From IMG/VR virus record IMGVR_UViG_3300033066_002329, positions 24,944 to 88,943 of that record: DNA of 64,000 nucleotides. One strand, 5' to 3'. The stretch's first letter is position 1. Each line of letters starts with the position of its first letter. Shown in pieces: positions 4,658-53,107 of the stretch. Below the pieces are notes generated by a model. The model did not search any database. It was not told the DNA's origin and was given only the letters and a program-made list of their open reading frames with translations. A program made the translations under genes and the position numbers. Source of the stretch: a virus (Duplodnaviria; Caudoviricetes).

Positions 4658-4683
4658 TACGTTGTTTTTTTAAAAAAGTTTCA
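4658..4683 (-). promoter_or_regulatory. ECF/sigmaW-type promoter TGAAAC-N16-CGTA(TAA)
   Basis: Exact motif 35 nt upstream of the SBP-OmpA start. Confidence 0.85.
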
Positions 4684-8555: not shown

Positions 8556-8581
8556 TACGTTTTCTTTTAAAAAAAGTTTCA
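8556..8581 (-). promoter_or_regulatory. ECF/sigmaW-type promoter TGAAAC-N16-CGTA(TAA)
   Basis: Exact motif at the head of the envelope operon. Confidence 0.85.
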
Positions 8582-9911: not shown

Positions 9912-9937
9912 TACGAATAGAAATAAAATAAGTTTCA
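9912..9937 (-). promoter_or_regulatory. ECF/sigmaW-type promoter TGAAAC-N16-CGTA(TAA)
   Basis: Exact motif upstream of the DUF3228-like gene. Confidence 0.85.
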
Positions 9938-13175: not shown

Positions 13176-13595
13176 TTAGTCACCTTCTGTTCCAAAACTT
13201 TTCAATGCATTAGTTTGCATTTTTTCCATTGCTTTATATGGCTCATTTAAAATTTGAATAGACCCATCTAAATTAACTGCAAATAATGGTTCTTCTCCAT
13301 ATTTTTCTTTAAAATCGTTAATATATCCATTCATCTTAAATATTTTATTTGATGTTGGATGAGTCCAAGCCTCAGAACCTAATATATCATCCTTAGATAA
13401 AATATGAGTTTTTCCTATCCCTTCAATTGAAGGCAAATAAGCATTACCTCTATTTTTAAAATCTACCTCTTTTCTAGTTTGTGGCAATTCATTAAATGGT
13501 CTAACCTGAAGAATATCAACCCCTTTAATAATAGGAGTTTTTTCTTGTTCAAATAATCTTTCAAGAGCTTCTCTGATATATTGTCTAAGTTTCAT
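13176..13595 (-). CDS. Hypothetical protein, possibly virion-associated
   Basis: N-terminal LRQYIREALE motif; TATTTAT element upstream. Confidence 0.7.
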   Translation of the reverse strand: MKLRQYIREALERLFEQEKTPIIKGVDILQVRPFNELPQTRKEVDFKNRGNAYLPSIEGIGKTHILSKDDILGSEAWTHPTSNKIFKMNGYINDFKEKYGEEPLFAVNLDGSIQILNEPYKAMEKMQTNALKSFGTEGD

Positions 13596-13621
13596 AACCT
13601 TTTTGTAATAAATAGCCTAAA

Positions 13622-13653
13622 AAAGCAAAAAAGCCTGGCATATACCAGGCTTT
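13622..13653 (-). terminator. Intrinsic terminator closing the tRNA/TrpRS operon
   Basis: AAAGCCTGGTA-t-ATGCCAGGCTTT followed by a T-rich tail, right after TAG TAG. Confidence 0.8.
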
Positions 13654-13656
13654 CTA

Positions 13657-14361
13657 CTACCAATAATCCCATCTTGCAGAATTTCTGTGGTGATATCTGT
13701 ATTCGTATTTATCGAATTCATCACCTCCGAACATCATATTCTTATAGACAGTTTGTTTAGAATTTCTTCTATCTGAACGATGGTATGGTTTTATGAAATC
13801 TTTTGGAGGATTTGCATCTCCCCATATTTGGACATCATAGAATTTTTTGCTAGATAATTCATCATGCTTTTCATTGATTTGGCTTTCTATTACAGAATCA
13901 AACTCTTTATAATGAGTCACCCAACGAGCTTTAATTTTTATAACGAAGAAGTATGTTTGAACCACACATCTGTAACGTGGCCAAAAACTATTGTAGTCTT
14001 TATCTCCATAAGTTATTTTACAGAAGTATTTTTTAACTTCTGGCTCTAAGCCCTCATAGACTCTTTCTGAAATATAACCGAATCCAGGACTTACATATTC
14101 GTATTTCCCTTTTCTGATTTTTTTCTTGAAAGATTTGTCTCTATTCCAGACTCTTTCTCCTACAAGTTGGATACATTTATAGAATACCCAAGCATCATCA
14201 CGATTCTTGATGTCATCTCTTAAGTCCCATACTTTGTAGTAGCCATCTTTATATGGCTTTTCTAATTCTATCCAGTTTTGATTATCCTGGATTTTTTCAA
14301 GCTCCCATTTGTCTCTTTGGACTTTGAGCTTCTCTTTGTAAAGAGGATGTTTTGTGTTCAT
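13657..14361 (-). CDS. Basic, aromatic-rich conserved hypothetical protein
   Basis: WIELEKPYKDGYYKVWDLRDDI resembles Bacteroidota proteins that I recall from RtcB/TROVE RNA-repair neighbourhoods (unverified). Confidence 0.65.
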   Translation of the reverse strand: MNTKHPLYKEKLKVQRDKWELEKIQDNQNWIELEKPYKDGYYKVWDLRDDIKNRDDAWVFYKCIQLVGERVWNRDKSFKKKIRKGKYEYVSPGFGYISERVYEGLEPEVKKYFCKITYGDKDYNSFWPRYRCVVQTYFFVIKIKARWVTHYKEFDSVIESQINEKHDELSSKKFYDVQIWGDANPPKDFIKPYHRSDRRNSKQTVYKNMMFGGDEFDKYEYRYHHRNSARWDYW

Positions 14362-14376
14362 ACGATTTTAGTTTAC

Positions 14377-14427
14377 TTACCAAAATCGCCAAACTCCTCC
14401 TGCAGTGCTTTTTAAGTTATTTTTCAT
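14377..14427 (-). CDS. Leader peptide MKNNLKSTAGGVWRFW*
   Basis: Hand-translated. Its last codons (CGATTTTGGT) form a 10-bp hairpin with ACTAAAATCG directly before the next ATG. Confidence 0.6.
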   Translation of the reverse strand: MKNNLKSTAGGVWRFW

Positions 14428-14451
14428 TTTTTTATTTTTGTTTTTTATCCG

Positions 14452-14523
14452 TAGCCTCGGCAGGAATCGAACCTGCATCTGAAGTTTAGGAAACTTTTAT
14501 TCTATCCATTGAACTACGAAGCC
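14452..14523 (-). tRNA. tRNA-Arg(CCT)
   Basis: Acceptor GGCTTCG/CGAGGCT, anticodon loop TT-CCT-AA, T-loop TTCGATT. Confidence 0.92.
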
Positions 14524-14789
14524 AAATCATCTTGAATATCATTCCAGATTTGCTTATTAATTTTAAACTTTGGAGTACGTTCATATTTTTCATATGTACA
14601 CATCCAACAATTACATGGCCTTGCTGTCGTTCTTAAAAAAGTGCAAGACTCCCCTTTTTCTATCTCCTTAATCCACTCTTCTCTTTTTTGTGGATGATAG
14701 CTATAAGTTCCTTGAGTCCAAACTTTAATTCTTTTCTTAAACTTTACTTTTTTTTTGTAACGTCTTAGGGCTCTTTTATAATTTTTCAT
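14514..14789 (-). CDS. Small basic protein with a CxCxxC motif; stop codon lies inside tRNA-Arg(CCT)
   Basis: Lys/Arg-rich N-terminus, PCNCWMC; the last 10 nt overlap the tRNA 5' end. Confidence 0.75.
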   Translation of the reverse strand: MKNYKRALRRYKKKVKFKKRIKVWTQGTYSYHPQKREEWIKEIEKGESCTFLRTTARPCNCWMCTYEKYERTPKFKINKQIWNDIQDDLAS

Positions 14790-14807
14790 ATACTTCAGGT
14801 GTTATCC

Positions 14808-14883
14808 TCACCAGAATGCGTCGAAGTATTTCGATTTAGCATCTGGCTTAGCGCCTGCAGTATCTGAGTTTAATATTAAACAT
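14808..14883 (-). promoter_or_regulatory. Leader ORF region: MFNIKLRYCRR* in the ATG frame, or ...NSDTAGAKPDAKSKYFDAFW* in the +1 frame
   Basis: Hand-translated. Shares T-A-G and F-W-stop with the 14377-14427 leader; ATACTTC pairs with GAAGTAT just before the next ATG. Confidence 0.5.
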
Positions 14884-14912
14884 AGTTTTATTTTTTATAA
14901 ATATACGAATTT

Positions 14913-15641
14913 TTAAGAGAACTTCTCAATCATTTTACGAGAAATCTCCTCCTTAAGTTGCAAATTTGTTTCATATTTATCAATTTCTACACCTAAATGC
15001 CTGGCAATCAAATGAATATTTTTTGTTCCATCCTCATTCATATTTGCCTTTCTAATCTTTTTATCATAATCTTCATCAAATAGATAAAGTACATGCTTTT
15101 CTCCTGCGGACTTAGACATTTTCTTTGTTGGGTCTATAAGTGACATAACCTTGTCTGCATCTCCAAATTCATATTTATAATATTTTCCATCAACTCTTTT
15201 AGATATGTCATTACAAAGGTCTATATGAGCAACTTGGTCTTTACCAACAATAATTACATCTGGGTCATTCATCATAATATCTGCAGCCATAAGTACAGGA
15301 TATAACAATAGGCCCATATCAAATTTAACATCATCTTTTTTATCCTTGTATTGAGGCATCTTAACAAGAGTAGGTAAACTAAGTTTGCAACATAATTTAA
15401 AAAAAAGTTCAGTATATTCTGGAGTTTGTCTTTTAATGTTTTTACAGCCAAGTCTAATTAATTCTTGCTCTGTTACATCTGAATAATTATCAGTTGTTAG
15501 AGCATGATAATTTGCTATAAGAAATGTTACATCGTGACCCTGCGCTTGAAGCTCAAGTCCTCTCTTAATGCATCCCAAATAGTTTCCGATATGAAGTCGT
15601 CCTGTAGGTTGAATCCCAATAAGATATTTTTTTGTTTCCAT
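14913..15641 (-). CDS. trpS: Tryptophanyl-tRNA synthetase (compact, 242 aa)
   Basis: GIQPTGRLHIGNY (HIGH), YPVLMAADI, VGKDQ, KMSKS. Confidence 0.95.
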   Translation of the reverse strand: METKKYLIGIQPTGRLHIGNYLGCIKRGLELQAQGHDVTFLIANYHALTTDNYSDVTEQELIRLGCKNIKRQTPEYTELFFKLCCKLSLPTLVKMPQYKDKKDDVKFDMGLLLYPVLMAADIMMNDPDVIIVGKDQVAHIDLCNDISKRVDGKYYKYEFGDADKVMSLIDPTKKMSKSAGEKHVLYLFDEDYDKKIRKANMNEDGTKNIHLIARHLGVEIDKYETNLQLKEEISRKMIEKFS

Positions 15642-16084
15642 GATAATGTTTTTAATTTTGTTTCATTTAAATTTTCTTCACAAAAACCGATAAGTGGTTT
15701 TGTTTTAATCCAAGAGTCTTTATCAGAAAGACCTTCAAGAGAAGAATCATCATCAATTAAAATAAAATTATCAAAATTATTTTCAGCAATAAATTTTTCA
15801 AATTCTTCTTTTCTACTTATATAACCATAAATAGGAACGATACCGTCAATTTGTTTTTTGATATTTCTATTTTTAAATATTTGATTTAACTCTTCATTTT
15901 TTTTTGTTCTTCTCCTATCAGAGATAAGCCATAATTCAAAATTTAAATCATCTGTAAGCTCATTAAAATTATCTACAGCTATAGAGTTGAATTTTGAATA
16001 ACCATCGCTTTCTAATTCATCTCTACGCCAAGAAGGAGTTGTAATAAGAACTCCATCCAAGTCTAATATAATTACATTTTTCAT
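15527..16084 (-). CDS. HAD-superfamily phosphatase (Swiss-Army-Knife RNA-repair-like HAD)
   Basis: MKNVIILDLDGVL, ISDRR, ILIDDD. True start placed at 16084 because the track start (16135) lies inside tRNA-Trp. Confidence 0.8.
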   Translation of the reverse strand: MKNVIILDLDGVLITTPSWRRDELESDGYSKFNSIAVDNFNELTDDLNFELWLISDRRRTKKNEELNQIFKNRNIKKQIDGIVPIYGYISRKEEFEKFIAENNFDNFILIDDDSSLEGLSDKDSWIKTKPLIGFCEENLNETKLKTLSWKQKNILLGFNLQDDFISETIWDALREDLSFKRRVTM

Positions 16085-16087
16085 TTG

Positions 16088-16161
16088 CACTAGCGGCAGG
16101 AATCGAACCTGCCCACGGAGATTTGGAGTTTCCATCGCCTACCCTTGGGACATTCGCTAGT
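16088..16161 (-). tRNA. tRNA-Trp(CCA) copy 1
   Basis: Acceptor ACTAGCG/CGCTAGT, G73, loop CT-CCA-AA, T-arm GCAGG-TTCGATT-CCTGC. Confidence 0.9.
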
Positions 16162-16255
16162 ATGTGATGATTCTCATTACTATTGAATCATCATTGAATT
16201 GCATCCTTCCTTTCGTAAGTGAGTAAGAGATTTAAAAATCTCAGCAATTCTATTG

Positions 16256-16326
16256 CACGCCTGGACAGATTCGAACTGCCATCAAAAGTTTTGGAGACTT
16301 CTATTCTACCATTGAACTACAGACGT
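16256..16326 (-). tRNA. tRNA-Trp(CCA) copy 2
   Basis: Acceptor ACGTCTG/CAGGCGT, G73, GAAGT-CTCCAAA-ACTTT, T-loop TTCGAAT. Confidence 0.92.
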
Positions 16327-16335
16327 ATATTTTTG

Positions 16336-16412
16336 CAGCCACCACGGGAGTCGAACCCGTATGTATCCAGTTACTCTTTCAACTGTTTAGAAGACAGAGG
16401 AGTTATGCAGCC
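16336..16412 (-). ncRNA. tRNA-like RNA with an Arg(TCT) anticodon arm but no canonical D-arm
   Basis: CTGT-CTTCTAA-ACAG arm, T-arm ACGGG-TTCGACT-CCCGT, wobble-rich acceptor, D-loop-like AACTGGATA placed 3' of the anticodon arm. Confidence 0.7.
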
Positions 16413-16510
16413 ATAATAAAAAATAATTATGAATAACTGGAATTGCGATATTCCATTACGTTATTAGCGTTGTCGCAGTCTCACTACTATACAGCCATAA
16501 TTATTTTTTG

Positions 16511-16583
16511 TGACCCTAGAGGAATTCGAATCCCCATTAAAAGCTTAGAAGGCTCTTGTCCTATCCAGTTGAACGATAAGGCC
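16511..16583 (-). tRNA. tRNA-Arg(TCT)
   Basis: Acceptor GGCCTTA/TAGGGTC, D-loop AACTGGATA, AGAGC-CTTCTAA-GCTTT, T-loop TTCGAAT. Confidence 0.92.
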
Positions 16584-16664
16584 ATTTATAGTTAGTCTAA
16601 GTAGTTTTATGATGCCAACTATTAAATGCATCCTCATAACGGATTACTACAATCCTTGAATTTG

Positions 16665-16740
16665 TGCTAAGTAGTGGAGTCGAACCACCAGATAATCAGT
16701 ACGTACATAACTATCTTTCCAAATGCATGCTTATTTGACC
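16665..16740 (-). ncRNA. Degenerate tRNA-like element
   Basis: Clear T-arm GGTGG-TTCGACT-CCACT and an AGATAG/TTATCT stem; no assignable anticodon and a poor acceptor stem. Confidence 0.35.
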
Positions 16741-16749
16741 TCAACATTG

Positions 16750-16837
16750 CGGAAGCAGTCGTATTCGAAACGAGCCCAACTAAATGGGTTCTTGTTTTCC
16801 AAACAAGCAAGAGCCACCTGCCCTATCTTCAACTTCC
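16750..16837 (-). tRNA. tRNA-Ser(GGA)
   Basis: CTTGT-TTGGAAA-ACAAG, long variable arm, T-loop TTCGAAT, G73. Confidence 0.88.
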
Positions 16838-16841
16838 ATGG

Positions 16842-16927
16842 CGGAAAACGGAGCAATCGAAGCCCAGTCAAATTAATGACCCTCTCGCTTAGCAGGCGGA
16901 GATAGAACCCTGTCTATTTCGTTTTCC
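16842..16927 (-). tRNA. tRNA-Ser(GCT)
   Basis: Acceptor GGAAAAC/GTTTTCC, loop CT-GCT-AA, variable arm GTCA/TGAC, T-loop TTCGATT, G73. Confidence 0.88.
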
Positions 16928-16996
16928 ATTTTTTATGCGGAACTAAAAAGATTCAAAAATCAATTTTTACCACATATTTATTATAAAACTTAATTT

Positions 16997-17662
16997 ATGA
17001 AACCATTATATACTCAGCAACAATTTGACAGTGCTAAATCAAGAGATAAACTTCCTTGTGAATGTTATATTTGTAAAAATACTTTTTATAAAATAAAGTA
17101 TGATATACAAAAACATTTAAACTCTAATAATATGCACAAAATAAAATACTGCTCTTCTAAATGCACTATTACTAAACAAACAGTTAACTGTATTCAATGT
17201 AATAAATCATTTTCTAAAGTTTTAAATCAAATCAAAAAAACAAAGAATAATTTTTGTTCAAAATCTTGTGCTGCAACTTACAACAATGCTCATAAGACCA
17301 TTGGCACAAGACGTTCAAAACTTGAAATTTATCTTGAACAACAACTTACAACCTTATATCCAAATCTTCATGTTGACTTCAACAAAAAAGAAGCGATTAA
17401 TTCTGAACTTGACATCTACATTCCATCTTTAAAACTTGCATTTGAGCTTAATGGCATCTATCATTATGAGCCAATTCATGGTCAAAATAAATTAAGTCAA
17501 ACACAAAATAACGACCAACGTAAATTCCAGGCTTGTATTGAACAAGGTATATCACTATGTATAATTGATGTCTCTAAACAAAAATACTTTAAAGAAAGTA
17601 CAAGTCAAGAGTTCTTAAGTATTATAACTGATATCATAAACAATATGTCAAAGAACATTTAA
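16997..17662 (+). mobile_element. Zn-finger plus PD-(D/E)xK (Vsr/DUF559-like) putative homing endonuclease inside the tRNA array
   Basis: CECYIC, CIQC, FCSKSC; ELDIYIPSLKLAFELNGIYHY. Confidence 0.75.
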
Positions 17663-17666
17663 TCAG

Positions 17667-17753
17667 AGGAGAGTGGAGGAACCGACCCCCTATCAGCTCA
17701 TCACCGAAACCATAGTTTTCAAGACTATTTGCGCTCCATGCACGGCACTCTCC
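17667..17753 (-). tRNA. tRNA-Ser(TGA), atypical T-loop and U73
   Basis: Acceptor GGAGAGT/ACTCTCC, ATAGT-CTTGAAA-ACTAT, long variable arm, T-loop GTCGGTT. Confidence 0.8.
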
Positions 17754-17763
17754 ATTTTTATTC

Positions 17764-17797
17764 AAAAAAAAATCCTGATTCTTTTGGAACCAGGATT
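17764..17797 (-). terminator. Attenuator terminator (segments 3:4), 11 nt upstream of the first tRNA
   Basis: AATCCTGGTTC-CAAAA-GAATCAGGATT (11 bp) followed by T7. Confidence 0.9.
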
Positions 17798-17838
17798 CAA
17801 TATTGTAATTTAATTTATCTCTTATAACGTAAAAAAAA

Positions 17839-17925
17839 TTATGACAATATATGGCCTGGTTCGGAGTTTCTTGAACTCGAACTTGAACTTCTCCAAGACC
17901 ATCTATATGTTGTTAATACTTTCAT
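17839..17925 (-). CDS. Attenuator leader peptide MKVLTTYRWSWRSSSSSSRNSEPGHILS*
   Basis: Hand-translated 28-aa ORF. Codons 8-19 are AGA TGG TCT TGG AGA AGT TCA AGT TCG AGT TCA AGA. Contains GAACCAGG, complementary to the terminator 5' arm. Confidence 0.85.
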   Translation of the reverse strand: MKVLTTYRWSWRSSSSSSRNSEPGHILS

Positions 17926-17964
17926 TACTTTTAAATAGTGTAAAATTTTATTTTTTATATTTTC

Positions 17965-18002
17965 TACGCACAAATATATAAAAGGTTTCAATTAAATGCA
18001 AA
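17965..18002 (-). promoter_or_regulatory. Overlapping ECF-type (TGAAAC-N16-CGTA, 17965-17990) and Bacteroidota housekeeping-type (TTTG-N20-TATATTTG, 17971-18002) promoters of the tRNA operon
   Basis: Both bipartite consensus patterns are present with canonical spacing. Confidence 0.75.
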
Positions 18003-18050
18003 TATTTTTTTAATTTTATTTCTTTCTACTTGAGAATCAGTGTTTTATTT

Positions 18051-18314
18051 TTAATTACGACGTGAATTATACTTATACCATTCAACTCTTGTAACTTTTT
18101 GTATAAATTTAGGATTTGCTAAAAAAAACATTTTTATTTTTTGACATACTTCATATTTTTCTAACTGACAAAAATATTCAAGTGCCTCTTCTATAACAAA
18201 GCTAGGTATTAGTTTAGATTCTTTTTTCTTAATTTTATTTTCAGCCAAGTCAGCTAAACCATTGTAAACTTTTATAGATTTTTTTTCAACATTTATTTCT
18301 TCATTTATTTTCAT
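18051..18314 (-). CDS. Hypothetical protein
   Basis: UVR-like EALEYFCQLEKYEVCQKIK segment. Confidence 0.65.
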   Translation of the reverse strand: MKINEEINVEKKSIKVYNGLADLAENKIKKKESKLIPSFVIEEALEYFCQLEKYEVCQKIKMFFLANPKFIQKVTRVEWYKYNSRRN

Positions 18315-18320
18315 AACTAA

Positions 18321-18563
18321 TTAACATAATAATCCATTCCCTTTTCCTCCTCCTAAGATATTATTGTGTCGTGGAAGATTTCTTAAAACTTTTTTTGAAA
18401 CTTCAACAGACTCACTCTCTTCTTCACTCCTATCGGGAGTTTCTTTTTTTAATACAAGAGCTAGGTGGTCCTTAATTATTGAAACTTGTTTTTCATTCAA
18501 AGTTTTAGCATCTGAAATCTCAAAATAACCTTGTAACCAATATATAAATGCCTCTGTTGTCAT
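18321..18563 (-). CDS. Hypothetical phage protein
   Basis: FIYWLQGYFE...QVSIIKDHL, a common small phage protein pattern. Confidence 0.75.
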   Translation of the reverse strand: MTTEAFIYWLQGYFEISDAKTLNEKQVSIIKDHLALVLKKETPDRSEEESESVEVSKKVLRNLPRHNNILGGGKGNGLLC

Positions 18564-18648
18564 TGCTTTATTTTCTATTATAAATAACTTATTAAAACTT
18601 AAATTTGTCTTTTTAAAAATATATTTTTTTTATCCCGTTTTTTTCTTT

Positions 18649-18963
18649 TTATTGCATATTTACTGCTCTTAGAGGATTTCTTTCATACAAAAAATCACCT
18701 TGAATGTTATTACAATATGTAATTAACTTAAAATATTTTCTATCTTTTTTTCTTCTAAATAAATACATAGTAATACCATCTTTTTTTTGATGATTATACA
18801 TATGTTCAAATGGAAAATCATCATTGATTTCATATATATCATCTTTAAAAAAAGAACTTAAAGCTTTTTCTTCTCCATATTCAATGCAAACTTCACTAAA
18901 TACTTCATCTACTATTTTAGCAGATTTTAAAAAATTTGAAATTTCGATTTTTTCCATACTCAA
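18649..18963 (-). CDS. Hypothetical protein
   Basis: 104-aa ORF; TATATTTG overlaps the first Met, so the start may be 18957. Confidence 0.65.
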   Translation of the reverse strand: MSMEKIEISNFLKSAKIVDEVFSEVCIEYGEEKALSSFFKDDIYEINDDFPFEHMYNHQKKDGITMYLFRRKKDRKYFKLITYCNNIQGDFLYERNPLRAVNMQ

Positions 18964-18980
18964 ATATAAGAAAAAGTCTT

Positions 18981-19062
18981 AAAAAAAACAAGAGCCGTGG
19001 TAATTTATCCACGACTCTTTAAGCAAACCAGGGTAGGCTTTGCCAGTAATAATTTGCTTATT
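18981..19062 (-). ncRNA. Candidate ~80-nt sRNA with its own promoter and terminator
   Basis: AGTAAC-N16-CGTA(TAA) at 19069-19094; TAAGCAAA/TTTGCTTA stem; AAGAGTCGTGG/CCACGGCTCTT hairpin plus T-tract; no ATG. Confidence 0.55.
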
Positions 19063-19089
19063 GTTTTATACGCAATATAGAATAAAAGG

Positions 19090-19632
19090 TTACTCTTGCT
19101 CTGGGGACATAATAACATAATGCCTCAAAGCCTCATATACACTCTTACCTTCATCATACATAATCTTTATATCTTCCCACTTCATAGATTCTCTATTATA
19201 TTCTTCATAATCTCCATCAATCATTCCCCAATTCATTAAATAAGAAAAAGTAATTTGAAAATCTCTCCACTCACAAGTGTCTTTACTTAAATCATCAGGA
19301 TAATAACTATACTTATTCACAAGCTCTTTCAATTTTAATTGAAACTCTTCTTGAAAAATTGGATTTCCATTCTCGTCTATTTTATCTATTTTAGTTTTAA
19401 GTAAATCTATGTTTTTACAATCTACATGCATACCTGCTTCTCTTGACCAGAATATATCTAAATGTATAATTGATTTTACTTCAGGTTCTGGTAATACCTT
19501 AAAAAGTTCATACCATTTTTTCGTTGGTTTAATCTGAGAAACTTTTAAGCCACCGAATCCAACTCTACAGAATGGACAAGTAATTTCTGGGTGTAACAAG
19601 AATTTTTTACTGATTGGAATTTTTTTTTTCAT
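19090..19632 (-). CDS. Hypothetical protein
   Basis: 180-aa ORF with CPFC. Confidence 0.65.
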   Translation of the reverse strand: MKKKIPISKKFLLHPEITCPFCRVGFGGLKVSQIKPTKKWYELFKVLPEPEVKSIIHLDIFWSREAGMHVDCKNIDLLKTKIDKIDENGNPIFQEEFQLKLKELVNKYSYYPDDLSKDTCEWRDFQITFSYLMNWGMIDGDYEEYNRESMKWEDIKIMYDEGKSVYEALRHYVIMSPEQE

Positions 19633-19787
19633 GAAAAAGCTTTTTCTTTTCCTTGAAAGATAGTCTCAAAACTTCAAGCTCTTCTTTCTTTTTTTTATAC
19701 TCATCTCTAAGTTTATCAATTTCTTGTTCAATCAGTGATGGCTTAATAGATAATTCATAATATTTTTTATTATAAATATGCTAATGT

Positions 19788-20081
19788 TTATAATATCTCA
19801 ACTACTTTTCCAAAAATATTTTTGGTCCATCCATTGACATAGCCACTATTATTGGATATTTGGCACCCCTTCTTTGAATCGACTGCTGATACAAGATGAG
19901 TGTAATAATTACCCTTAACTTTACAATAAACAATATCTCCAACATCAACTTCTTCCCATGTTGCAGGAATAATTTTTACTGGTTGTTTTGATTTTATAAG
20001 AGGAAGCATAGAATTGCCTGGCTCCTTAGAAATAATAGTTTCTCCTAAGGCAAGTTTTTCTATTTTCCAATTTCTTCCCAT
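19788..20081 (-). CDS. S24/S26 peptidase-like small protein
   Basis: GNSMLP, GDIVYC, THLV (Ser-His type). Confidence 0.6.
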   Translation of the reverse strand: MGRNWKIEKLALGETIISKEPGNSMLPLIKSKQPVKIIPATWEEVDVGDIVYCKVKGNYYTHLVSAVDSKKGCQISNNSGYVNGWTKNIFGKVVEIL

Positions 20082-20338
20082 TATTTTTTTTCATTTCTTT
20101 TTTTATACCACACACTTGCATAAGTACCTATAAATGCGCCTATTAATGCAGCAATTACAAAAGTTTTATCATCAACATATGTATTTACAGAAAATGCTCC
20201 ACAAGCCATTATCGCCATAGACCAAACTGCTGCTGCAAAACTTTTTCTTTCTTCTACCTTAATAAAATAATAAGTCCAGCAAATATCGCCTATGCATACT
20301 GCTAAAATTACACTAAAAAATTTAATCCAATATTCCAT
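20081..20338 (-). CDS. Small three-TM membrane protein
   Basis: Three hydrophobic helices; coupled to the next gene. Confidence 0.75.
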   Translation of the reverse strand: MEYWIKFFSVILAVCIGDICWTYYFIKVEERKSFAAAVWSMAIMACGAFSVNTYVDDKTFVIAALIGAFIGTYASVWYKKRNEKK

Positions 20339-20340
20339 AA

Positions 20341-21741
20341 TTATATCCCTTGGCCCCCCTCTTCTTCAATTACTGTTATTATTCCCTTTTTATCTTTAGC
20401 TACACCTAAATATGTAGCTCCTCTATCAAAGTCCATAGTTTTATCATCTTTATCAATGTAAGGAGTATCTATAGCTCCACTATTAATAAGAGTAATTAGT
20501 CTCTTTGGTAATATTATATCTTTATCTTTATTTATTCTTTCAATATTCTCAAAATCAGAAAAACGTTCTCCAGACATTTCTGTATAAGAATAAATACCAT
20601 ATCTACCAAAGAAAATTTTATCTAATTCTGGAGCAGCCTCAAAACATTTTTTACCAGCTTCGATTATAAATAACTCAAAATCTTTCTCTTCTTTATTTTC
20701 AAAATAATTTGTAATATCATATGACCTTACATTTTCTAAAATAACTTTACCATGATGCACAAGAGTGTATGTATCATCATAGATAGATTTTTTATATGCT
20801 TCTTCTGCTGCTTTCTCTTTTTCTTCTATTTCAATCTTAGCTTTTTCATCGTTTGAGTACTTTCTTAAATTAGGATAAGAAGATAAAACAGATTTAGATG
20901 CCTTAACCTCTACTCCTTCTAAATCATAAAATTGACTTATATCCCAATTTGAATTATTAAGAAATTTTATTGTGTGGACTCCAAAATCTTTAAGATTTTT
21001 TATTTTTGTTTTAAGCAAATCTCTATTATCATAGTGAAGCAACTTATTCATGATAGAACTAGTAGGCTTATAAACTCCATCTTTAATATCCATTTTAATA
21101 AAATGGTCTAAGTCAATTTTTCCTATTTTTTCTGCTGCTCCTTCCCACGTATATTCTGGATGTTTTTTTTGAATATAAGCAGATGGAGTCAGGTGAAATT
21201 CATTTGTTGGCTTTTTAGGAAATCCAATAGGACCAACTAATTCCTCTAATTCATATTCTACCAATGGAATATCTGGATTATCTTTTAATAATTCAATCAA
21301 AGTCTCAAGGCCTTCAAAAGATTTATTATAATGTTTTTTTTTATCATATCCAATACACTGCTGTACTTCCATAGCCTTTAATCTATAACCATGATAATCC
21401 ATATAAATTGCATGCTCAAAATAATCTTGTTTATAAAACTCACTTCTGTATACGCCACTCACAAAACCATAAAATGTATAATCTCCTAAAATAAATTTCT
21501 TTCCAGCATATTTATTCCAATCTATGGAGTCATAAATTTTTTCGATTTCTTGAGGAGTAAATACTTTCCCAAATTTTTTGGAAAAATTATTCATACTATA
21601 GTGAGGGTCAAATTTTCCGTCTATTTTTTCATTCCAATTGTATCTTTGTTCTGAAGGTTTTTCATGAAAATACATATGGTCATTTAACCAAAAAGCTGTT
21701 CCATTCCAATAAGATTCGTGAAATTTTTCTATTGTCATCAT
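20341..21741 (-). CDS. Hypothetical protein
   Basis: 466-aa ORF; no domain recognised. Confidence 0.75.
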   Translation of the reverse strand: MMTIEKFHESYWNGTAFWLNDHMYFHEKPSEQRYNWNEKIDGKFDPHYSMNNFSKKFGKVFTPQEIEKIYDSIDWNKYAGKKFILGDYTFYGFVSGVYRSEFYKQDYFEHAIYMDYHGYRLKAMEVQQCIGYDKKKHYNKSFEGLETLIELLKDNPDIPLVEYELEELVGPIGFPKKPTNEFHLTPSAYIQKKHPEYTWEGAAEKIGKIDLDHFIKMDIKDGVYKPTSSIMNKLLHYDNRDLLKTKIKNLKDFGVHTIKFLNNSNWDISQFYDLEGVEVKASKSVLSSYPNLRKYSNDEKAKIEIEEKEKAAEEAYKKSIYDDTYTLVHHGKVILENVRSYDITNYFENKEEKDFELFIIEAGKKCFEAAPELDKIFFGRYGIYSYTEMSGERFSDFENIERINKDKDIILPKRLITLINSGAIDTPYIDKDDKTMDFDRGATYLGVAKDKKGIITVIEEEGGQGI

Positions 21742-21751
21742 AATTCTAAAT

Positions 21752-22699
21752 TTATTTTAGCCATAAATAATCATGGCTGATTTTTGTATCATAAGTTGCA
21801 AATTCTACAATTTCTTTTTTTGGCATAATCCAACCATCATTTCTCAATTGTTCTATTGCTGTTTTTATTTTAAATTCAAATTCCTCTCTACCGACATGAT
21901 AATCTCTAATTGTAATCATTAGAATATACTTACCATCATCAATTTTTTTGAATACATTCTTAGACAAATGGCCATTAACTCTTCTTGCAGACGCTGTCAA
22001 CTCTTCTCTCGCTTCTTTAGACCCATCAAATTCTACTCCTATGTGGCTCTCAAAATAGCAACCTGTAGGCATTGACTCTCCTTCTTTTTGAGGAGCTCCT
22101 GGATGCCAAGGTGCTGTTTCTACTTTTTCTCTAACTACTTTATACCCCAATCGTTTTAGAGAACCTGATATTCTTTGGAGCTCTTCATAAACACCTCTAT
22201 TGTCTCCTACATATTTGGATGATGTCATAACATCATTTGATAAATCTCCTTCGCTATTTTCTAAATCTAATACGATAGCTTTAACATTCAATTTTGTGCA
22301 TGCATTTTGAAAAAGCTTAATAAAATCTTCTAATGGCATTTCATTATCTCTTTCAACTGTTACATGTATTTCATATGGTAGTGGAAAGTTAGCACTCTCT
22401 TCTTTTGCTTGTAATCCTTGCCACATTTGAGATTTTTCAAACATCATTTCTTCAATGTCTTCATGCTCAAACCCAAGGTCATATGCAATTGATATTGCTG
22501 CTAGAACTGTATCTACTACTTCTTCTAATATATTATGCTTATCAACAAATCTATGTCTACAAGCATAAGCAGAATCAAAAGGAAGTGCTACTTTTGCAAG
22601 CTCTCCTCCCTCTTCAAATACTTTAGAAACTTTTTGAGATAAATTTTTCTTATCTCTCTTTGATAACTCCTGAATGTAATCTAATATTTTTTTATCCAT
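21752..22699 (-). CDS. MazG-like NTP pyrophosphohydrolase fused to an uncharacterised C-terminal domain
   Basis: KVFEEGGELAK...ILEEVVDT acidic MazG motif; C-domain YEIHVTV/YFESHIGV. Confidence 0.75.
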   Translation of the reverse strand: MDKKILDYIQELSKRDKKNLSQKVSKVFEEGGELAKVALPFDSAYACRHRFVDKHNILEEVVDTVLAAISIAYDLGFEHEDIEEMMFEKSQMWQGLQAKEESANFPLPYEIHVTVERDNEMPLEDFIKLFQNACTKLNVKAIVLDLENSEGDLSNDVMTSSKYVGDNRGVYEELQRISGSLKRLGYKVVREKVETAPWHPGAPQKEGESMPTGCYFESHIGVEFDGSKEAREELTASARRVNGHLSKNVFKKIDDGKYILMITIRDYHVGREEFEFKIKTAIEQLRNDGWIMPKKEIVEFATYDTKISHDYLWLK

Positions 22700-22805
22700 A
22701 ATGCAAATATAATAAAAAAACAGTTAAAGAACATTTACTGTCGAGCTTAATGGGTATTTCAAGGCTTCAGATTTTGTTCAGTACTATAAGCCTTTTTTCC
22801 TCTGT

Positions 22806-26843: not shown

Positions 26844-28295
26844 TTATAATTCTACACTATTTTTAATTGTATTAGTAAGAATGTTAATATCTTGCTCTGC
26901 AAGTTTCATAAGGTCAAAAATCTTTTCAGAAAATCCAACTAAAAAAATCACCTTATTTCCAACAAATTGAATTGTTGGATTACCTGCTAAATCAAAATTA
27001 TATAAAAATGGATTTGCCCCTGTTTTCTTTTTATAATCATTAAAGCAATATTGACTTGAATTCATTTGACCCCAAGCTTCTCCATCTGATAATATAATCA
27101 AACGGTCATATTTATTTTTTTCTTTATCCATTAATTCAAAAAACTTACTATATTTTGTTCCTCCAAGGTCAATTCCATTAAACTTTTCACTGATAGTAAA
27201 AATACTATCTTTTAAATTAAAGTTTACATAATTAGCAGTATCTCCAAATACAATTACATCAGCATTATTTGATTTTGCTAATACAGCAGCAAATAAACCT
27301 CCAATTTTAGTTGGTTGACCACGCATAGAACCTGAACGGTCATATATTACACAAGTTTTTCCTGGTAATGCTGGAACATTAGAACAAGATATTTCAATAG
27401 CATCTTCTAATGCTGAGATAACTTGTCTCGAATTGCTTCCTCCTACTTTTTGCAATTCCTCAATTGCAGTTACAAATTGAAAAGGTAATATTAAAGACTT
27501 GGAAATTAAATTTTTATCTCTAAGCAAATTACATGCAGCATCTATAGACTCAGGAGATTGAATCATTATATTTCTCAAATTTCTTACAAGAGCTAAATAA
27601 CCAATCTTCTTAGTTTCAATAAGTTCTTTCCAAACTTGAGCCTTTTTTTCATTTTTATCATTACCTGAATTAGACTGTCCTGCCTCAGAAAGTTTTGCCT
27701 CCCATGTATCTGTATTTTTTAAAGTACCATTAATAAGTTCAGCAAGAGCTTTCTTGTTTTTATTTGTTGCTTTAGGATGTACTAAATTAACAATATCAAC
27801 AAGAGAAACTTCATTTCCTTCTCCTTTATATTTTGCCAATTGATATCCATCAAATTTATCAAATGCCTTCGAAAATCCTTTTTTCAGAGAATTTGGTAAA
27901 GCCTTATTTTTATTTTTAATAAAATAATAAGATATAATTTCACTCATATCATCTGGTCTATTAATAATATCTTCAAAGAATTTTTTACTCCATTCTTTAC
28001 CTGACAAGTATTTCGCAACTTCAACTGCAAGTACATGAGTAATAGAACGCATACCAAATGTAGTTCTTGCATATATAGCAGCTTTTGCTGCAAATTTTGG
28101 GTCTACTTTTGTTAGTAATTCAGGAATCCTTTTTAAGGTATCTGTAGACTTTTTATAAAATTGGTCTTGTACAAATGAAGTTAAAAGAATTGACACTAAT
28201 TCTACTTCTGCTGTTTTTTCATATGCTTGACCACCTGCATAATTAACAGCTTCAACTCTCTGTGGAGTTATCTTTTTTGTGTTAAATTTTCCCAT
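26844..28295 (-). CDS. TROVE/Ro60 (Rsr-like) RNA-binding protein with a vWA domain
   Basis: RPDDM, FDGYQLAKY, LVDIVNLVHPK, TWE, YLALVRNLRN, LPFQF, MIDAS DRSGSM. Confidence 0.95.
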   Translation of the reverse strand: MGKFNTKKITPQRVEAVNYAGGQAYEKTAEVELVSILLTSFVQDQFYKKSTDTLKRIPELLTKVDPKFAAKAAIYARTTFGMRSITHVLAVEVAKYLSGKEWSKKFFEDIINRPDDMSEIISYYFIKNKNKALPNSLKKGFSKAFDKFDGYQLAKYKGEGNEVSLVDIVNLVHPKATNKNKKALAELINGTLKNTDTWEAKLSEAGQSNSGNDKNEKKAQVWKELIETKKIGYLALVRNLRNIMIQSPESIDAACNLLRDKNLISKSLILPFQFVTAIEELQKVGGSNSRQVISALEDAIEISCSNVPALPGKTCVIYDRSGSMRGQPTKIGGLFAAVLAKSNNADVIVFGDTANYVNFNLKDSIFTISEKFNGIDLGGTKYSKFFELMDKEKNKYDRLIILSDGEAWGQMNSSQYCFNDYKKKTGANPFLYNFDLAGNPTIQFVGNKVIFLVGFSEKIFDLMKLAEQDINILTNTIKNSVEL

Positions 28296-37012: not shown

Positions 37013-37038
37013 TACGTTTACAATTTAGAAAGGTTTCA
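37013..37038 (-). promoter_or_regulatory. ECF/sigmaW-type promoter TGAAAC-N16-CGTA(TAA)
   Basis: Exact motif upstream of the RadA-like gene. Confidence 0.85.
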
Positions 37039-49315: not shown

Positions 49316-50362
49316 TTAAAAATCTTCATTAAAACTTACATTACCACTTAAATCTGCTTTTCTATATTCTACAGCTCTTCCTTCAAAGAAATTTTCTTTA
49401 GATTCTAGCGCAATTTGTTCCATGAATTTAAATGGTTGCTCTACATTAAATTCTTTTTTACAACCAAGTTTAACTAATAATTGGTCTACTACAAACTCAA
49501 GATATTGCTTCATTAAATTGGCATTCATACCAATCATTGATACAGGTATAGATTCTGTAATAAATTCTTTTTCTATTGCTAATGCAGATAATAAGATTTC
49601 TCTTATCTTTTTTTCACTAGGTTTATTTACAACATGTCTATTTAATAAATTAATTGCAAATTCACAGTGTAAATTTTCATCTTTAAAAATTAAAGAGTTT
49701 GCTTTACATAATCCAGGCATTAGACCTTTTGATTTAAGCCAAAATATAGCAGAAAATGAACCTGAAAAAAATATTCCTTCTACAGCTACAAATGCTATCA
49801 ATCTTTCAGCAAAAGAATCTGACTCAATCCAATTTAATGCCCAATCTGCTTTCTTTTTAACAGCAGGTAAATAATCAAGAGCTTGAAAGCATTCGTTCTT
49901 TTCTTTTAAATCTTTTATGTAAGTATCAATCAATAGAGAATATGTTTCTGAATGCACATTTTCCATTGCTATTTGAAATCCATAAAAGCTTTTTGCTTCT
50001 GGATATTGAACTTCTCTTTGAAAATTTTCTGCTATGTTTTCATTTACAATACCATCACTTGCTGCAAAAAAAGCTAAAATATTTTTTATAAAAAATCTTT
50101 CTTTATCATTTAGACTTTCCCAATCATTTATATCTTTTGATAAGTCTATTTCTTCTGCACTCCAAAGTGTGGAAAAATGTGTTTTGTAAAATTGCCAAAT
50201 ATCTTGGTGTTCTATTGGATACATCACAAAGCGATGTGGATTTGGTTTTAAAATTGGTTCTTCTTTCATTATTGTTTTTTTGTCTTCTGTTATTTTGTTT
50301 TCTTCCATAATTAAATTTGTTTCGAGGTAAAGATAAATAAAATTAAAAAATTCTTTTTCCAA
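49316..50362 (-). CDS. nrdB: Ribonucleotide reductase class Ia beta subunit
   Basis: [37 protein letters not shown]. Confidence 0.97.
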
Positions 50363-50384
50363 AAAACTTATTAACCTTTTATAA

Positions 50385-51818
50385 TTAAATTGGAAATTGA
50401 TTCATATCTTGTTCAAGATTAAATACACTTTCTTGCGTTTTTTCCTTTTTTTCGCTGGTTTTGACTGTTTTTTTAATACCCATACCTTCTGGAGTAATTG
50501 GCTTAATGTCAATAAATATTTTTGATGTATTGAATATTGCATCTAAAAATATATTTGCTTGTCCATTTCTATTTTTCAAAATACCAATTTTGGCAGCATC
50601 AGGATTTTCAGCTACTTCATCAGGGTCTCTACCTATAGATATAATAACATCAGCAGTTCTCGCATTACCAAGAGACTCAGCTATTGAACTAAGCGAAACT
50701 TTATCTGTATCCATTCCACTTCTACCTGTTTGAGCCGCATTCCAAATAGGTATCTTTAATTCATCAGCCATACCTCTTATTCCAACATATATACTATCTA
50801 ACGCATGCCTTTTTTCACTATAATTATCAACAGGCTTTAATAAATCTCCATAATCAATAAAAATAATATCTGGCTTAAATCCTTCAGTAGTTTCCAGAGT
50901 TCTAATATGAGCCATTAATGTATTAATTGAGGCCTGACCACTTGGAAATTTTTTAATAATTAACTCTCCACCTGCTTCAACTATTTCATCTGCTTTTTCT
51001 TTAATAACATCTGGAAAATCCCAAACGTTTTTTAAATGTATTTGATTAATACAAGCATCAAATCTTTGACCTACAACTTCTTCTGATAATTCAAGGGTAT
51101 AATATAAAACTTTTTTACCAGCCATAAAAGCATTACATGCAAATGCAACTAGAAACATTGACTTACCTCCACCTGCTTGAGCTAATACAACTCCCATTTC
51201 TCCCGCAGCAAGACCTCCTCCTATATATTGGTCAAGACTTGGTAATGCAGTAATCGGACTTCTAAAATTTTTATCTAAACGTTTCGCAATATCTTGCGCA
51301 TAATTATGTCCTGTTTCTTTAGGCTCTCCTGCTTTTAAGGCATCTTCTAACATTTTCTTCATAGAATCATAATTATGCTTTTTCCATTCCATAACTAATT
51401 TATGAAGACAATTTTTTACAGACCTTTCTTTAAAATATCTATAAGAAGAATTCTGAATGTGTTCTGCATTGTCAATTTTTATCGCTTCTATTTTTTCAAT
51501 CAATCCAAGTAAATGGTCTTTATTAAGGCCTTTTTCTTTTTCATTAATTAAATCTCTAAGAGTTGAAAATCTTGCTATTTCTTTATATTGATTAAAAAAC
51601 TTAATTTGATAATCAAGTAAAATTTTTTGATATGCATCGAAATATTCTGGTTCTACAATATCAATTATTCTTTCAGGAAATCCATGTCTATCATTTGTGA
51701 ATACATTTAAAAATCTATTCTGATAATCTACATCAAATTGCTCTGTAATATCTTCTTGTAAAAAAGACATTACACCTTCCATTTCCTTTTCTTTATTTTC
51801 ACCTTTTACCTGAGTCAT
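50385..51818 (-). CDS. DnaB-like (T4 gp41-type) replicative helicase
   Basis: [31 protein letters not shown]. Confidence 0.9.
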
Positions 51819-52068
51819 CTTTTTTCTTATTTAAATCATCCCAAATTTTTTTCTTATGTACTTCTGTTATTTTTTCTTCAAGTTTATTTGCCATATCTTT
51901 TAGAAAATAGTAAAAAGTTATTTCTTCTTTTTCTATAATTTCACTTGCATAATCTGGTAGTTCAATTTTTTGTTTTTGTATAATTTTACCATTATACTCA
52001 AGCTTAATAGAAAATTCATTTTTTTCAGTATTTAATTTTTTTAATTTTTCCCGAATATTATTTGACAT
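51799..52068 (-). CDS. Hypothetical protein
   Basis: 89-aa ORF between the exonuclease and helicase. Confidence 0.6.
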   Translation of the reverse strand: MSNNIREKLKKLNTEKNEFSIKLEYNGKIIQKQKIELPDYASEIIEKEEITFYYFLKDMANKLEEKITEVHKKKIWDDLNKKKDDSGKR

Positions 52069-52069
52069 A

Positions 52070-53107
52070 TTAAAGTTTCATTTTTTGCGTATATTCTTTT
52101 TCTTTCAACATTACCATGTAAAATGTAGAAAAAAAATCTTGTGAATACTCTTCTCCTACATAATTCATTAAGCCCTCTTCTCTAAACAGACTAATAGCAC
52201 TAGTTATTTCTCTTGAATCATCTAAAATACCATTTTTAACAATATTCACCTGCTTCACTGCTTCAGAACTTAAAAAAGGTTTTTTTAAATTCATTAATTT
52301 TGCATTTCTATACAAAACATCTTCAGCTTGAATAATCTTATCGTAAATTTTTCTTTTTCCTATTTTCTTGTCTTTTTTTGCCTCATATGCTTCTTCTCTC
52401 AATCTTGCATATGTATATTTCTCAGTTTTAATTGCTGGAAAATATTTCATTAAAGTATCTCTTGTAATCCCATTAACTCCTGCAATATCATCGCCCTTAT
52501 CTCCTTCAAAACACTTCATTAACAATTCATTATCTAAAGTATGACCATATTTTTCTTCATATTCTTCTCTATTAAAAACCCATAAATTATCATTAGTTAT
52601 AATAGATACTTTATCAGACATTAACTGAAGATAATCCTTATCTTTACTAAGAATAAATATTTTTTCATCATCATCTTCTGACTTAAGAACGTATTGAGCA
52701 ATAATATCGTCTGCCTCAATATAATCAACCTCAACTTGTCTTATAAACATTTCTTCTAATATATTTTGCAAAGCTATTTTTTGCCTATATATTTCGAATC
52801 TTTCCATATCTTCTGGACTTCCTGTTCCTTCTGTGATAATAGCTCTATTCTCATTCTCAAAATTTTTACCACGGCTTATTTTATAAGGTTTATAAATATT
52901 ATATCTTAATTTTCCTGCATTAAAACCGTCCCAAGCAATCACTATCCTATCTGGAAGTAATTTATTTATTACCTTTTTAAGACTAAATAAAAAGCCTATA
53001 ATACCTCCGCACTTAGTGAATTTACTACTCATTAAATTTCCTTGACCTTTAATGTGTTTTTTTAAAAGCCACTGACCATCTATTAATAATGTTTTTTGTA
53101 CTGACAT
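52070..53107 (-). CDS. 5'-3' exonuclease/flap endonuclease (T4 RNase H/PolI-like)
   Basis: LLIDG, IAWD, YKISR, EADDII, KDKDYLQL, GDKGDDIAGV. Confidence 0.9.
   Translation of the reverse strand: MSVQKTLLIDGQWLLKKHIKGQGNLMSSKFTKCGGIIGFLFSLKKVINKLLPDRIVIAWDGFNAGKLRYNIYKPYKISRGKNFENENRAIITEGTGSPEDMERFEIYRQKIALQNILEEMFIRQVEVDYIEADDIIAQYVLKSEDDDEKIFILSKDKDYLQLMSDKVSIITNDNLWVFNREEYEEKYGHTLDNELLMKCFEGDKGDDIAGVNGITRDTLMKYFPAIKTEKYTYARLREEAYEAKKDKKIGKRKIYDKIIQAEDVLYRNAKLMNLKKPFLSSEAVKQVNIVKNGILDDSREITSAISLFREEGLMNYVGEEYSQDFFSTFYMVMLKEKEYTQKMKL

Follow-up and report, generated by a model that had tools for sequence, protein, structure and literature searches.

A leader unit at the head of a tRNA array

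The subject of this work is a short element on the minus strand of a 64-kb stretch of phage DNA (positions 24,944 to 88,943 of IMG/VR virus record IMGVR_UViG_3300033066_002329), referred to below as the window, which is the right-hand part of an 88.9-kb virus contig, G000, with a GC content of 29%. The minus strand carries nearly all genes of the window and every tRNA gene, and the feature coordinates given here were verified on this strand and are read from 18002 downward. The element begins with a promoter box, continues with a mini open reading frame (ORF) rich in Arg, Trp and Ser codons and ends with an intrinsic terminator, behind which lie Ser, Arg and Trp tRNA genes and a gene for tryptophanyl-tRNA synthetase (TrpRS). 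Its anatomy is conserved, and a match between leader codons and the tRNAs that follow is observed across units of this kind. Very probably the element works as a transcription attenuator of the ribosome-mediated, leader-peptide type and controls the expression of a phage 'translation-supply' operon.

The promoter box upstream of the leader (17965-18002, minus strand) combines a sigma-70-like pair, TTTGCA and TATATT separated by 18 nt, which a promoter-site scan placed at 18002-17973, with a GAAAC-N16-CGTA box at 17989-17965. The latter motif occurs at five minus-strand sites in the window (4658-4682, 8556-8580, 9912-9936, 17965-17989 and 37013-37037), with 0.12 expected by chance, and it contains or overlaps a TAnnTTTG motif of the Bacteroidota promoter type. 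The promoter box is kept in the related contigs L012, L014, L006 and L020 (comparison loci and contigs are labelled L001-L028, where L026 is LR756502.1 and L028 is the phiCbK genome, JX100813) and before a second unit of the same contig. GAAAC-N16-CGTA represents an extracytoplasmic function (ECF)-sigma-like promoter class that the element has in common with other phage operons.

The leader ORF (17839-17925, minus strand) consists of 28 codons and a TAA, with its ATG at 17925 and the stop at 17841-17839, and encodes a peptide that starts with M-K-V-L-T-T-Y, has the core RWSWRSSSSSSR and ends with EPGHILS. Codons 8-19 (17869-17904) form an uninterrupted regulatory run of 12 codons, AGA TGG TCT TGG AGA AGT TCA AGT TCG AGT TCA AGA, i.e., three AGA, two TGG and seven Ser codons, the latter drawn from both Ser boxes; all Arg codons of the leader are AGA, and the Arg tRNAs behind it are UCU (two copies) and CCU. 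The 28-codon leader at 17925-17839 and its 12 consecutive Arg/Trp/Ser codons had been proposed by the first-pass annotation of this DNA, and both were confirmed as stated. Arg, Ser and Trp account for 14 of 27 leader residues, where the phage's own ORFs would lead one to expect 12% (binomial p 3.5e-7). A Shine-Dalgarno motif precedes only three of the 61 long ORFs of the contig, whose upstream regions are A-rich, and AAA is their commonest second codon, so the AUG AAA of the leader in its A-rich context is a typical start. An overlapping, Phe/Lys/Glu-rich frame (17902-17822) was considered as the leader and rejected: it has 10 codons in L006, and there are no Phe, Lys or Glu tRNAs behind it.

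The intrinsic terminator (17764-17798, minus strand; -14.7 kcal/mol) is separated from the leader by a 40-nt AU-rich spacer and has a stem of 12 pairs, including one G-U (17798-17770), a 5-nt loop, CAAAA, and a U9 tract that ends at 17764. All coordinates of the first-pass annotation hold to within one base; the stem of 11 bp and the T7 given there compare with 12 pairs and U9 here, and the distance of 11 nt to the first tRNA, tRNA-Ser(UGA) at 17753-17666, is corrected to 10 nt. A promoter scan from the leader to the first tRNA listed no promoter-like site between 17925 and 17754, and, with a gap of only 10 nt, no promoter fits between the terminator and the tRNA.

RNA structures of the leader

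In the minimum-energy fold, segments 1 and 2 of the leader form a branched hairpin (17851-17903, minus strand; -14.8 kcal/mol) with an outer helix AUGGUCU/GGCCAU and inner helices GUUCG/CGAAC and AGUU/AACU. The core of segment 2, GAACCAGG (17855-17862, minus strand), lies inside codons 22-24 and is also the antiterminator strand, its exact complement being segment 3, CCUGGUUC (17787-17794, minus strand), in the 5' arm of the terminator. The resulting 2:3 pairing of GAACCAGG (17862-17855) with CCTGGTTC (17794-17787) is exact over 8 bp, has an energy of -13 kcal/mol and is matched by only 2.7% of dinucleotide shuffles and 0.4% of natural 50-nt windows. The 8-bp antiterminator of the first-pass annotation thus stands.

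The effect of a ribosome on these structures was followed with a kinetic proxy, in which transcripts were cut before the 3' arm of the terminator and a ribosome was represented by a 28-nt mask. For the window unit, the 2:3 helix is in the minimum-energy fold with the A site at codons 9-17 and is lost from codon 19 on. Across units, pairing of the terminator 5' arm is high with the A site on the regulatory codons and falls stepwise beyond them. The switch anticipated for a fold with the ribosome footprint masked is therefore seen in this co-transcriptional proxy; the outcome of equilibrium folding is taken up below.

Codon-matched leaders before other tRNA blocks

Nearly every tRNA block in the contig and in related huge phages (Mahaphage type) has a promoter, a mini-ORF and a terminator of its own. 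In the related contigs a terminator lies 10-35 nt upstream of almost every tRNA block, with a short ORF before it, and each mini-ORF spells the amino acids of the tRNAs that follow it, down to the codon boxes. The comparison set comprises 17 units from ten loci, every unit being followed by a separate tRNA block, and the published 642-kb LR756502.1 adds two more (His/Lys/Phe/Trp and Ser/Arg). The second unit of the same contig is found 1.8 kb before the window start (G000 ~23110-22815, minus strand) and has the same promoter box, a 39-codon ORF and a terminator; Met, Pro, Ala, Gly, Tyr and Asp abound in its leader, and the block behind it contains ~16 tRNAs of the isotypes Pro, Asp, Tyr, Ala, Gly and Met.

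Among the related contigs, Ser/Arg leaders precede Ser and Arg tRNAs in L001, L003, L008 and L026, Lys leaders precede Lys tRNAs in L003 and L005, and His/Lys/Phe/Trp leaders precede His, Lys, Phe and Trp tRNAs in L008, L009, L026 and L004, while L010 has a His/Trp leader before Trp and His tRNAs and an Ile/Arg leader before Ile and Arg tRNAs. For a 508-kb record all 68 tRNAs were listed and its remaining tRNA regions were examined, which yielded four further units: a Leu/Asn/Thr/Val/Ile/Met leader before Leu, Asn, Thr, Val, Ile and Met tRNAs, a Pro/Asp leader before Asp, Glu and Pro tRNAs, a leader with a Gln run before four Gln tRNAs, and an Ile(AUA)/Tyr/Gly/Ala/Glu leader before Glu, Tyr, Gly, Ile(UAU) and Ala tRNAs. 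In L008 (9674-11579) a leader with three His-Phe repeats and a terminator precede genes for HisRS-like (211 aa) and PheRS-like (366 aa) proteins and no tRNAs, which suggests, as judged from sequence, that the module also controls synthetase genes that stand without tRNAs. Elsewhere in this contig (L008:2238-2390) ARAGORN at a relaxed threshold calls two tRNAs, of which one has the anticodon UUA and would decode UAA, a stop codon, and the other has an anticodon of four bases.

The isotypes of the block behind it are enriched in each leader (binomial p 2e-2 to 3e-7). Over 11 non-redundant classes the mean amino-acid match of a leader to its own block is 0.42, as against 0.16 for mismatched pairings (z 8.4), and the codon/anticodon match is 0.38 as against 0.13 (z 9.9); none of 100,000 derangements equalled the observed match between leaders and blocks. 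In the eight units with Arg tRNAs, the Arg codon box agrees with the Arg tRNA box in all but two of 25 Arg codons, with AGR used where UCU or CCU tRNAs follow and CGN in eight of eight codons where ACG, GCG or UCG tRNAs follow; AGR makes up 86% of Arg codons in phage ORFs. The antiterminator recurs as well. In 14 of 15 units the terminator 5' arm has its best partner within the last 35 nt, or last third, of the leader ORF; in the remaining unit, L007, the arm pairs over 11 bp with a partner immediately upstream of it. Compared with natural 50-nt windows of the same loci, the antiterminator complementarity gives a combined Fisher p of 1.6e-7 (12 classes).

These comparisons bear on a rival account of the locus, according to which the mini-ORF is an ordinary small protein gene or untranslated, the hairpin is a leaky terminator or an insulator that ends upstream transcription, unseen promoters or constitutive read-through supply the tRNAs, and coincidence or repeats account for the codon match. 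The Ser run of the window leader is a tandem AGTTCR hexamer and for this reason could, taken alone, be a simple repeat; we judge the codon run to be more than chance because of the comparative data and not because of the run itself. Such an account could also point to the weakness of the 1:2 structure and to phage phiCbK, in which terminators before tRNA genes were annotated without further comment. It would have to accommodate a codon/isotype match that recurs in 11 independent classes and is equalled by none of 100,000 mismatched pairings, an Arg codon box that tracks the tRNA box and antiterminator complementarity that is located in the 3' end of the ORF, and the alternative frame 17902-17822 is not conserved in L006. 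We therefore regard it as highly improbable.

Orthologous leaders in relatives

The TrpRS encoded in the window is 65-78% identical to the products of genes in ten IMG/VR contigs (two of them of 482 and 508 kb) and in LR756501-3, which are 642- and 735-kb huge phages of the Mahaphage clade with predicted Bacteroidetes hosts (Al-Shayeb et al. 2020). Orthologues of the window leader were found in L012/L013, L014 and L020, with a more distant form in L006/L019/L021; L012/L013 and L014 were reached via the 87-aa gene upstream of the leader. L021 turns GC-rich after the leader and looks chimeric. Of the contigs with more distant homologues of the 87-aa gene, L016-L018 end before the leader region and L015 is without a leader. 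Several direct searches gave little: the 87-aa protein has no relative in IMG/VR, the exact 32-nt leader pattern has no match in IMG/VR, a DNA search of a phage collection with positions 16000-19000 returned only a 65-nt tRNA-like match in Streptomyces phages, and degenerate leader patterns retrieved only the L006 contig in IMG/VR and three metagenome contigs, L021 among them.

In five contigs other than that of the window, the orthologous leaders retain the peptide together with its hairpin and antiterminator. The conserved peptide begins with M-K, followed by four to five variable residues, R(S)WSWR, a Ser run, R, two variable residues, EPGH and (I/V/L)LS. The codons of the N-terminal part and the spacer diverge among the orthologous leaders, and the peptide is conserved with synonymous changes (GAA to GAG and swaps of Ser codons). 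In L006/L019 segment 2 is GAGCCAGG (A to G) and segment 3 is CCUGGCUC (U to C), i.e., a compensatory pair, and the L006 leader hairpin has the same architecture, with GCUC/GAGC replacing AGUU/AACU and a U-G pair replacing U-A. The terminator is conserved in L012, L014 and L020, where it is located 9-12 nt before tRNA-Ser(UGA), and is not so placed in L006/L019. A conserved leader, a compensatory change and matching codon/tRNA sets were what the first-pass annotation had hoped to see in related jumbo phages, and all three were found.

The same data speak to the possibility that the leader RNA senses tRNA directly, in a T-box-like fashion and without a ribosome, with uncharged anticodons pairing with the codon run and stabilizing the antiterminator. 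The tRNA and synthetase genes that would be targeted are those under T-box control in Firmicutes, and the codon run is complementary to the anticodons encoded downstream. A sensor of this type would give no account, in our opinion, of the in-frame ATG and stop and the shared M-K-T-type start that are found in every unit, of a single leader frame that spells up to eight isotypes, or of a peptide conserved through the synonymous GAA to GAG and Ser changes. Moreover, no T-box or other Rfam leader family was found in 13500-19000 by cmscan at E up to 1, the only matches being to the tRNA clan and two at chance level. We regard direct sensing of tRNA, too, as highly improbable.

Proposed mechanism and points that weigh against it

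From the anatomy we infer that the leader is translated, that ribosomes stall in it and that read-through of the terminator is regulated. Host RNA polymerase would start at the 18002-17965 box and transcribe the 28-codon leader, on which a ribosome would begin translation. With rapid decoding of the Arg-AGA, Trp and Ser codons, the ribosome would reach codons 19-28 and the stop codon and cover segment 2, whereupon the terminator hairpin would form and transcription would end at U9, 10 nt before the first tRNA. When any of those aminoacyl-tRNAs is scarce, the ribosome would stall in codons 8-17, leaving segment 2 free to pair with CCUGGUUC before the 3' arm of the terminator is made, and the polymerase would enter the tRNA genes and the TrpRS gene. 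The several isotypes would be wired as an OR gate. The module, with other codon sets, precedes the other tRNA blocks and at least one aminoacyl-tRNA synthetase operon of the lineage. Because the products, tRNAs and a synthetase, would relieve the stall, the arrangement would constitute a closed, self-limiting negative-feedback loop on decoding capacity. Candidate natural triggers may be the codon demand of the AT-rich genome, the loss of host tRNAs in infection or a tRNA-targeting defence; the same anatomy is explained by a simple feedback in which the phage matches its tRNA supply to demand. The attenuation logic of the trp/his type, which the first-pass annotation had put forward, is supported by the conserved leader, hairpin and antiterminator and by the codon-matched relatives, and all the computational checks run from those suggested there came out in its favor.

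A number of observations weigh against this interpretation. In equilibrium folding with a ribosome mask the terminator is dominant in most units at any ribosome position. The terminator is likewise dominant at equilibrium in classical attenuators, so the switch must be kinetic, and the equilibrium model, judged uninformative for such a switch, was replaced by the cut-transcript proxy. Without a ribosome the proxy forms the 2:3 antiterminator rather than the 1:2 structure, and therefore an untranslated leader is predicted to give read-through and not super-attenuation. The 1:2 helices, which had been assigned the role of a 'protector', are indeed present in the full-length minimum-energy fold and are conserved in L006; given the behavior of the proxy without a ribosome, and a z of only -2.0 for the leader hairpin (8 of 200 shuffles are equally good, so that the gain over shuffles is modest), the protector role itself is not strongly supported. 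The antiterminators of L023, of the first unit of L024 and of the L008 Ser/Arg unit are weak (p 0.25-0.34). The covariation of the window unit comes from one diverged lineage, the orthologues being close, and the terminators of L006 and L010 are separated from the tRNAs by an ORF of unknown function. Finally, several tRNAs of the window deviate from the canonical form and need relaxed thresholds or manual assignment to be called, and to these points the tandem hexamer of the Ser run has to be added.

Genes behind the terminator

The operon regulated by the putative attenuator would, as read from the sequence, comprise three Ser, two Arg(UCU) and two Trp tRNAs, a HAD phosphatase, TrpRS and tRNA-Arg(CCU). 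The features that follow are on the minus strand except where indicated. The first gene after the terminator, tRNA-Ser(UGA) (17666-17753), is called by ARAGORN with -ps90 and scores 32.5 bits in the Rfam tRNA clan, which is below the cut-off. It is followed by a homing-endonuclease-like gene (16997-17662, plus strand; PHROG 559/3339, E 1.5e-12), which is inserted antisense in the array and lies outside the switch; L012 and L014 lack it at this position, where they have a second Ser(UGA)-like tRNA. The Ser(GCU)-like tRNA gene with an encoded CCA (16839-16927) is called neither by ARAGORN, at default or relaxed settings, nor by Rfam, and was recognized by its RNAfold cloverleaf with a CUGCUAA loop and 78% identity to L012. 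tRNA-Ser(GGA) (16751-16833) is called by ARAGORN at the relaxed threshold only. The adjoining conserved tRNA-like element (16655-16750) is 85% identical to L006:4356-4447 and has a T-arm-like GGUGGUUCGACUCCAC and no callable cloverleaf; a Ro60/TROVE-like gene (PHROG 850) is present at 26844-28295 of the window, and the element could thus possibly be a Y-RNA-like partner of its product.

The first copy of tRNA-Arg(UCU) (16510-16583) is called by ARAGORN at default settings and by Rfam, and the second (16335-16428), which is 98% identical to L012, by ARAGORN with -ps90 only. Two dissimilar tRNA-Trp(CCA) genes (16255-16326 and 16087-16161; ARAGORN default and Rfam) are followed by the gene for a HAD phosphatase of the 'Swiss army knife' RNA-repair type (15527-16135; PF18143, E 1.3e-20) and that for a short TrpRS of 242 aa (14913-15641; PF00579, E 3e-38). 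After TrpRS come a 91-aa ORF, tRNA-Arg(CCU) (14451-14523; ARAGORN default and Rfam) and a 234-aa ORF (13657-14361), which is the last gene before the next strong terminator (13628-13655). This terminator directly follows the 234-aa ORF and is probably the end of the attenuated unit, and terminator scans between 17764 and 13655 found a single weak minus-strand terminator-like site of 5 pairs, at 16824-16810 inside tRNA-Ser(GGA). The tRNA set named by the first-pass annotation is therefore borne out in part: the default settings of ARAGORN call only the two Trp-CCA, one Arg-TCT and Arg-CCT genes of the array, Ser-TGA, Ser-GGA and the second Arg-TCT appear only on relaxation, and Ser-GCT is not called by the programs.

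Most isoacceptors (Trp, Arg-UCU, Pro, Asp, Tyr, Ala and Gly) are represented by two adjacent genes with the same anticodon and very different sequence and GC content, of which one is often missed by ARAGORN or Rfam (window 14451-17753, G000 16989-22765). The HAD ORF of the window has 202 codons and overlaps the TrpRS start by 114 nt. In L012 (7769-9392) and L014 a 149-aa HAD protein gene is followed by an ArgRS-like gene of ~394 aa, which the window lacks, probably through a deletion.

The job of the attenuator may, as the first-pass annotation proposed, be counter-defence, such that host anticodon nucleases or other defences that deplete tRNAs would slow the decoding of the leader and so induce replacement tRNAs, the synthetase and RNA-repair enzymes. 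This would be a special case of the attenuator explanation and not an alternative mechanism. Phage tRNAs can rescue infection from tRNA-cleaving defences, and tRNAs for His, Tyr, Asn, Asp and Lys are classic targets of anticodon nucleases. The presence of an RNA-repair HAD phosphatase (PF18143) inside the attenuated operon and of two dissimilar copies of most isoacceptors is consistent with such a purpose, as is a 13-codon leader of LR756502.1 (9399-12172) that contains His, Thr, Tyr, Lys, Asn, Val, Ile, Asp, Trp and Met codons and precedes two RNA-ligase-like genes and a HisRS-like gene. This leader has the same antiterminator layout, its 3' end pairing over 9 bp with its own terminator arm, and might serve to sense tRNA damage, or the match could be coincidental, the ORF being so short. 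The design, however, covers nearly every isotype, some of which are not known to be attacked by nucleases; this breadth fits a general control of supply for an AT-rich genome (29% GC) at least equally well. We therefore consider a counter-defence role possible and propose it tentatively. It is conceivable, at a similarly low level of confidence, that the codon-matched leaders gauge supply and also sense damage, so that stalling, once a host defence has cleaved or depleted particular tRNAs, would switch on the matched replacement tRNAs, the cognate synthetase and RNA-repair enzymes (HAD; ligases in LR756502.1). If this is true, damage sensing would be a modular, isotype-addressed inducible counter-defence of huge phages.

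Relation to known systems and implications

The enterobacterial leaders trpL, hisL, leuL and pheL and the multivalent leaders of thr and ilvGMEDA are attenuators of amino-acid biosynthesis operons. Like the window unit, they have a promoter, a short ORF with regulatory codons and an intrinsic terminator, and their antiterminator uses one of the two terminator strands and is hidden once a ribosome completes the ORF; as in the phage units, one leader can read several amino acids. In contrast to the biosynthetic enzymes produced under trp/his-type control, the output of the phage unit is tRNA, aminoacyl-tRNA synthetase and RNA-repair genes, and because of this the product would feed back directly on the sensor. 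The phage units also differ in that the 1:2 anti-antiterminator is weak or absent in many of them, and they match no Rfam leader family. The pheST operon of E. coli, in which a Phe-rich leader attenuator controls phenylalanyl-tRNA synthetase, is closer in that a translation-supply gene is controlled and the leader codon matches the amino acid of the enzyme. Its nearest analogues here are the His/Phe leader of L008 before the HisRS- and PheRS-like genes and the Trp pair of the window leader before TrpRS. The phage element, unlike pheST, is phage-borne and multi-isotype, has tRNAs first in the window unit and has no sequence relationship to it. T-box riboswitches, which control aminoacyl-tRNA synthetase and amino-acid genes of Firmicutes, bind tRNA directly and have no ORF. 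They too sense a shortage of charged tRNA and act by antitermination into translation-supply genes; the phage unit differs from them by its conserved in-frame ORF and the lack of a T-box match.

To our knowledge, attenuation through leader peptides has been established for operons of amino-acid biosynthesis and for a synthetase, but for no tRNA genes. No attenuator of tRNA genes was described in the literature on attenuation, leader peptides and phage tRNAs that we covered, which was limited and does not prove absence. What differs here from the known attenuators is the tRNA-gene target, the closed loop, the breadth of the codon sets and the phage setting. Similar units are present in phage phiCbK (JX100813). 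There, the 45-aa gp083, rich in Ser, Leu, Pro and Lys, and an annotated terminator precede tRNAs for Pro (two), Lys (two), Leu (three) and Ser (two) at 49540-50937, and an unannotated mini-ORF rich in Gln, Phe, Val and Ile and an annotated terminator precede Phe, Val, Ile and Gln tRNAs at ~51290-52216. This phage belongs to an unrelated lineage and has a GC-rich host, and the comparison covered the mini-ORF, the terminator and the tRNA match. The phiCbK genome paper leaves these units uninterpreted, the words attenuation and leader being absent from it in a word search, and a word search of the huge-phage paper found no mention of attenuation or leaders (Al-Shayeb et al. 2020).

The regulated product would be the very molecule that is sensed. 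Each tRNA block of the phage would then tune its own supply in a closed loop, and this would account for the way in which phages with 20 to 70 tRNA genes keep clear of over-expression that is wasteful or harmful. The design is modular, with 11 codon-set classes seen, and has gone unremarked in the published genomes of LR756502.1 and phiCbK. Since phiCbK is a cultured phage of a model bacterium (Caulobacter), experiments are feasible now. Attenuators of this kind would provide a natural read-out of codon-specific decoding speed inside infected cells and offer a testable answer to the question of when and why huge phages express their large tRNA and aminoacyl-tRNA synthetase repertoires.

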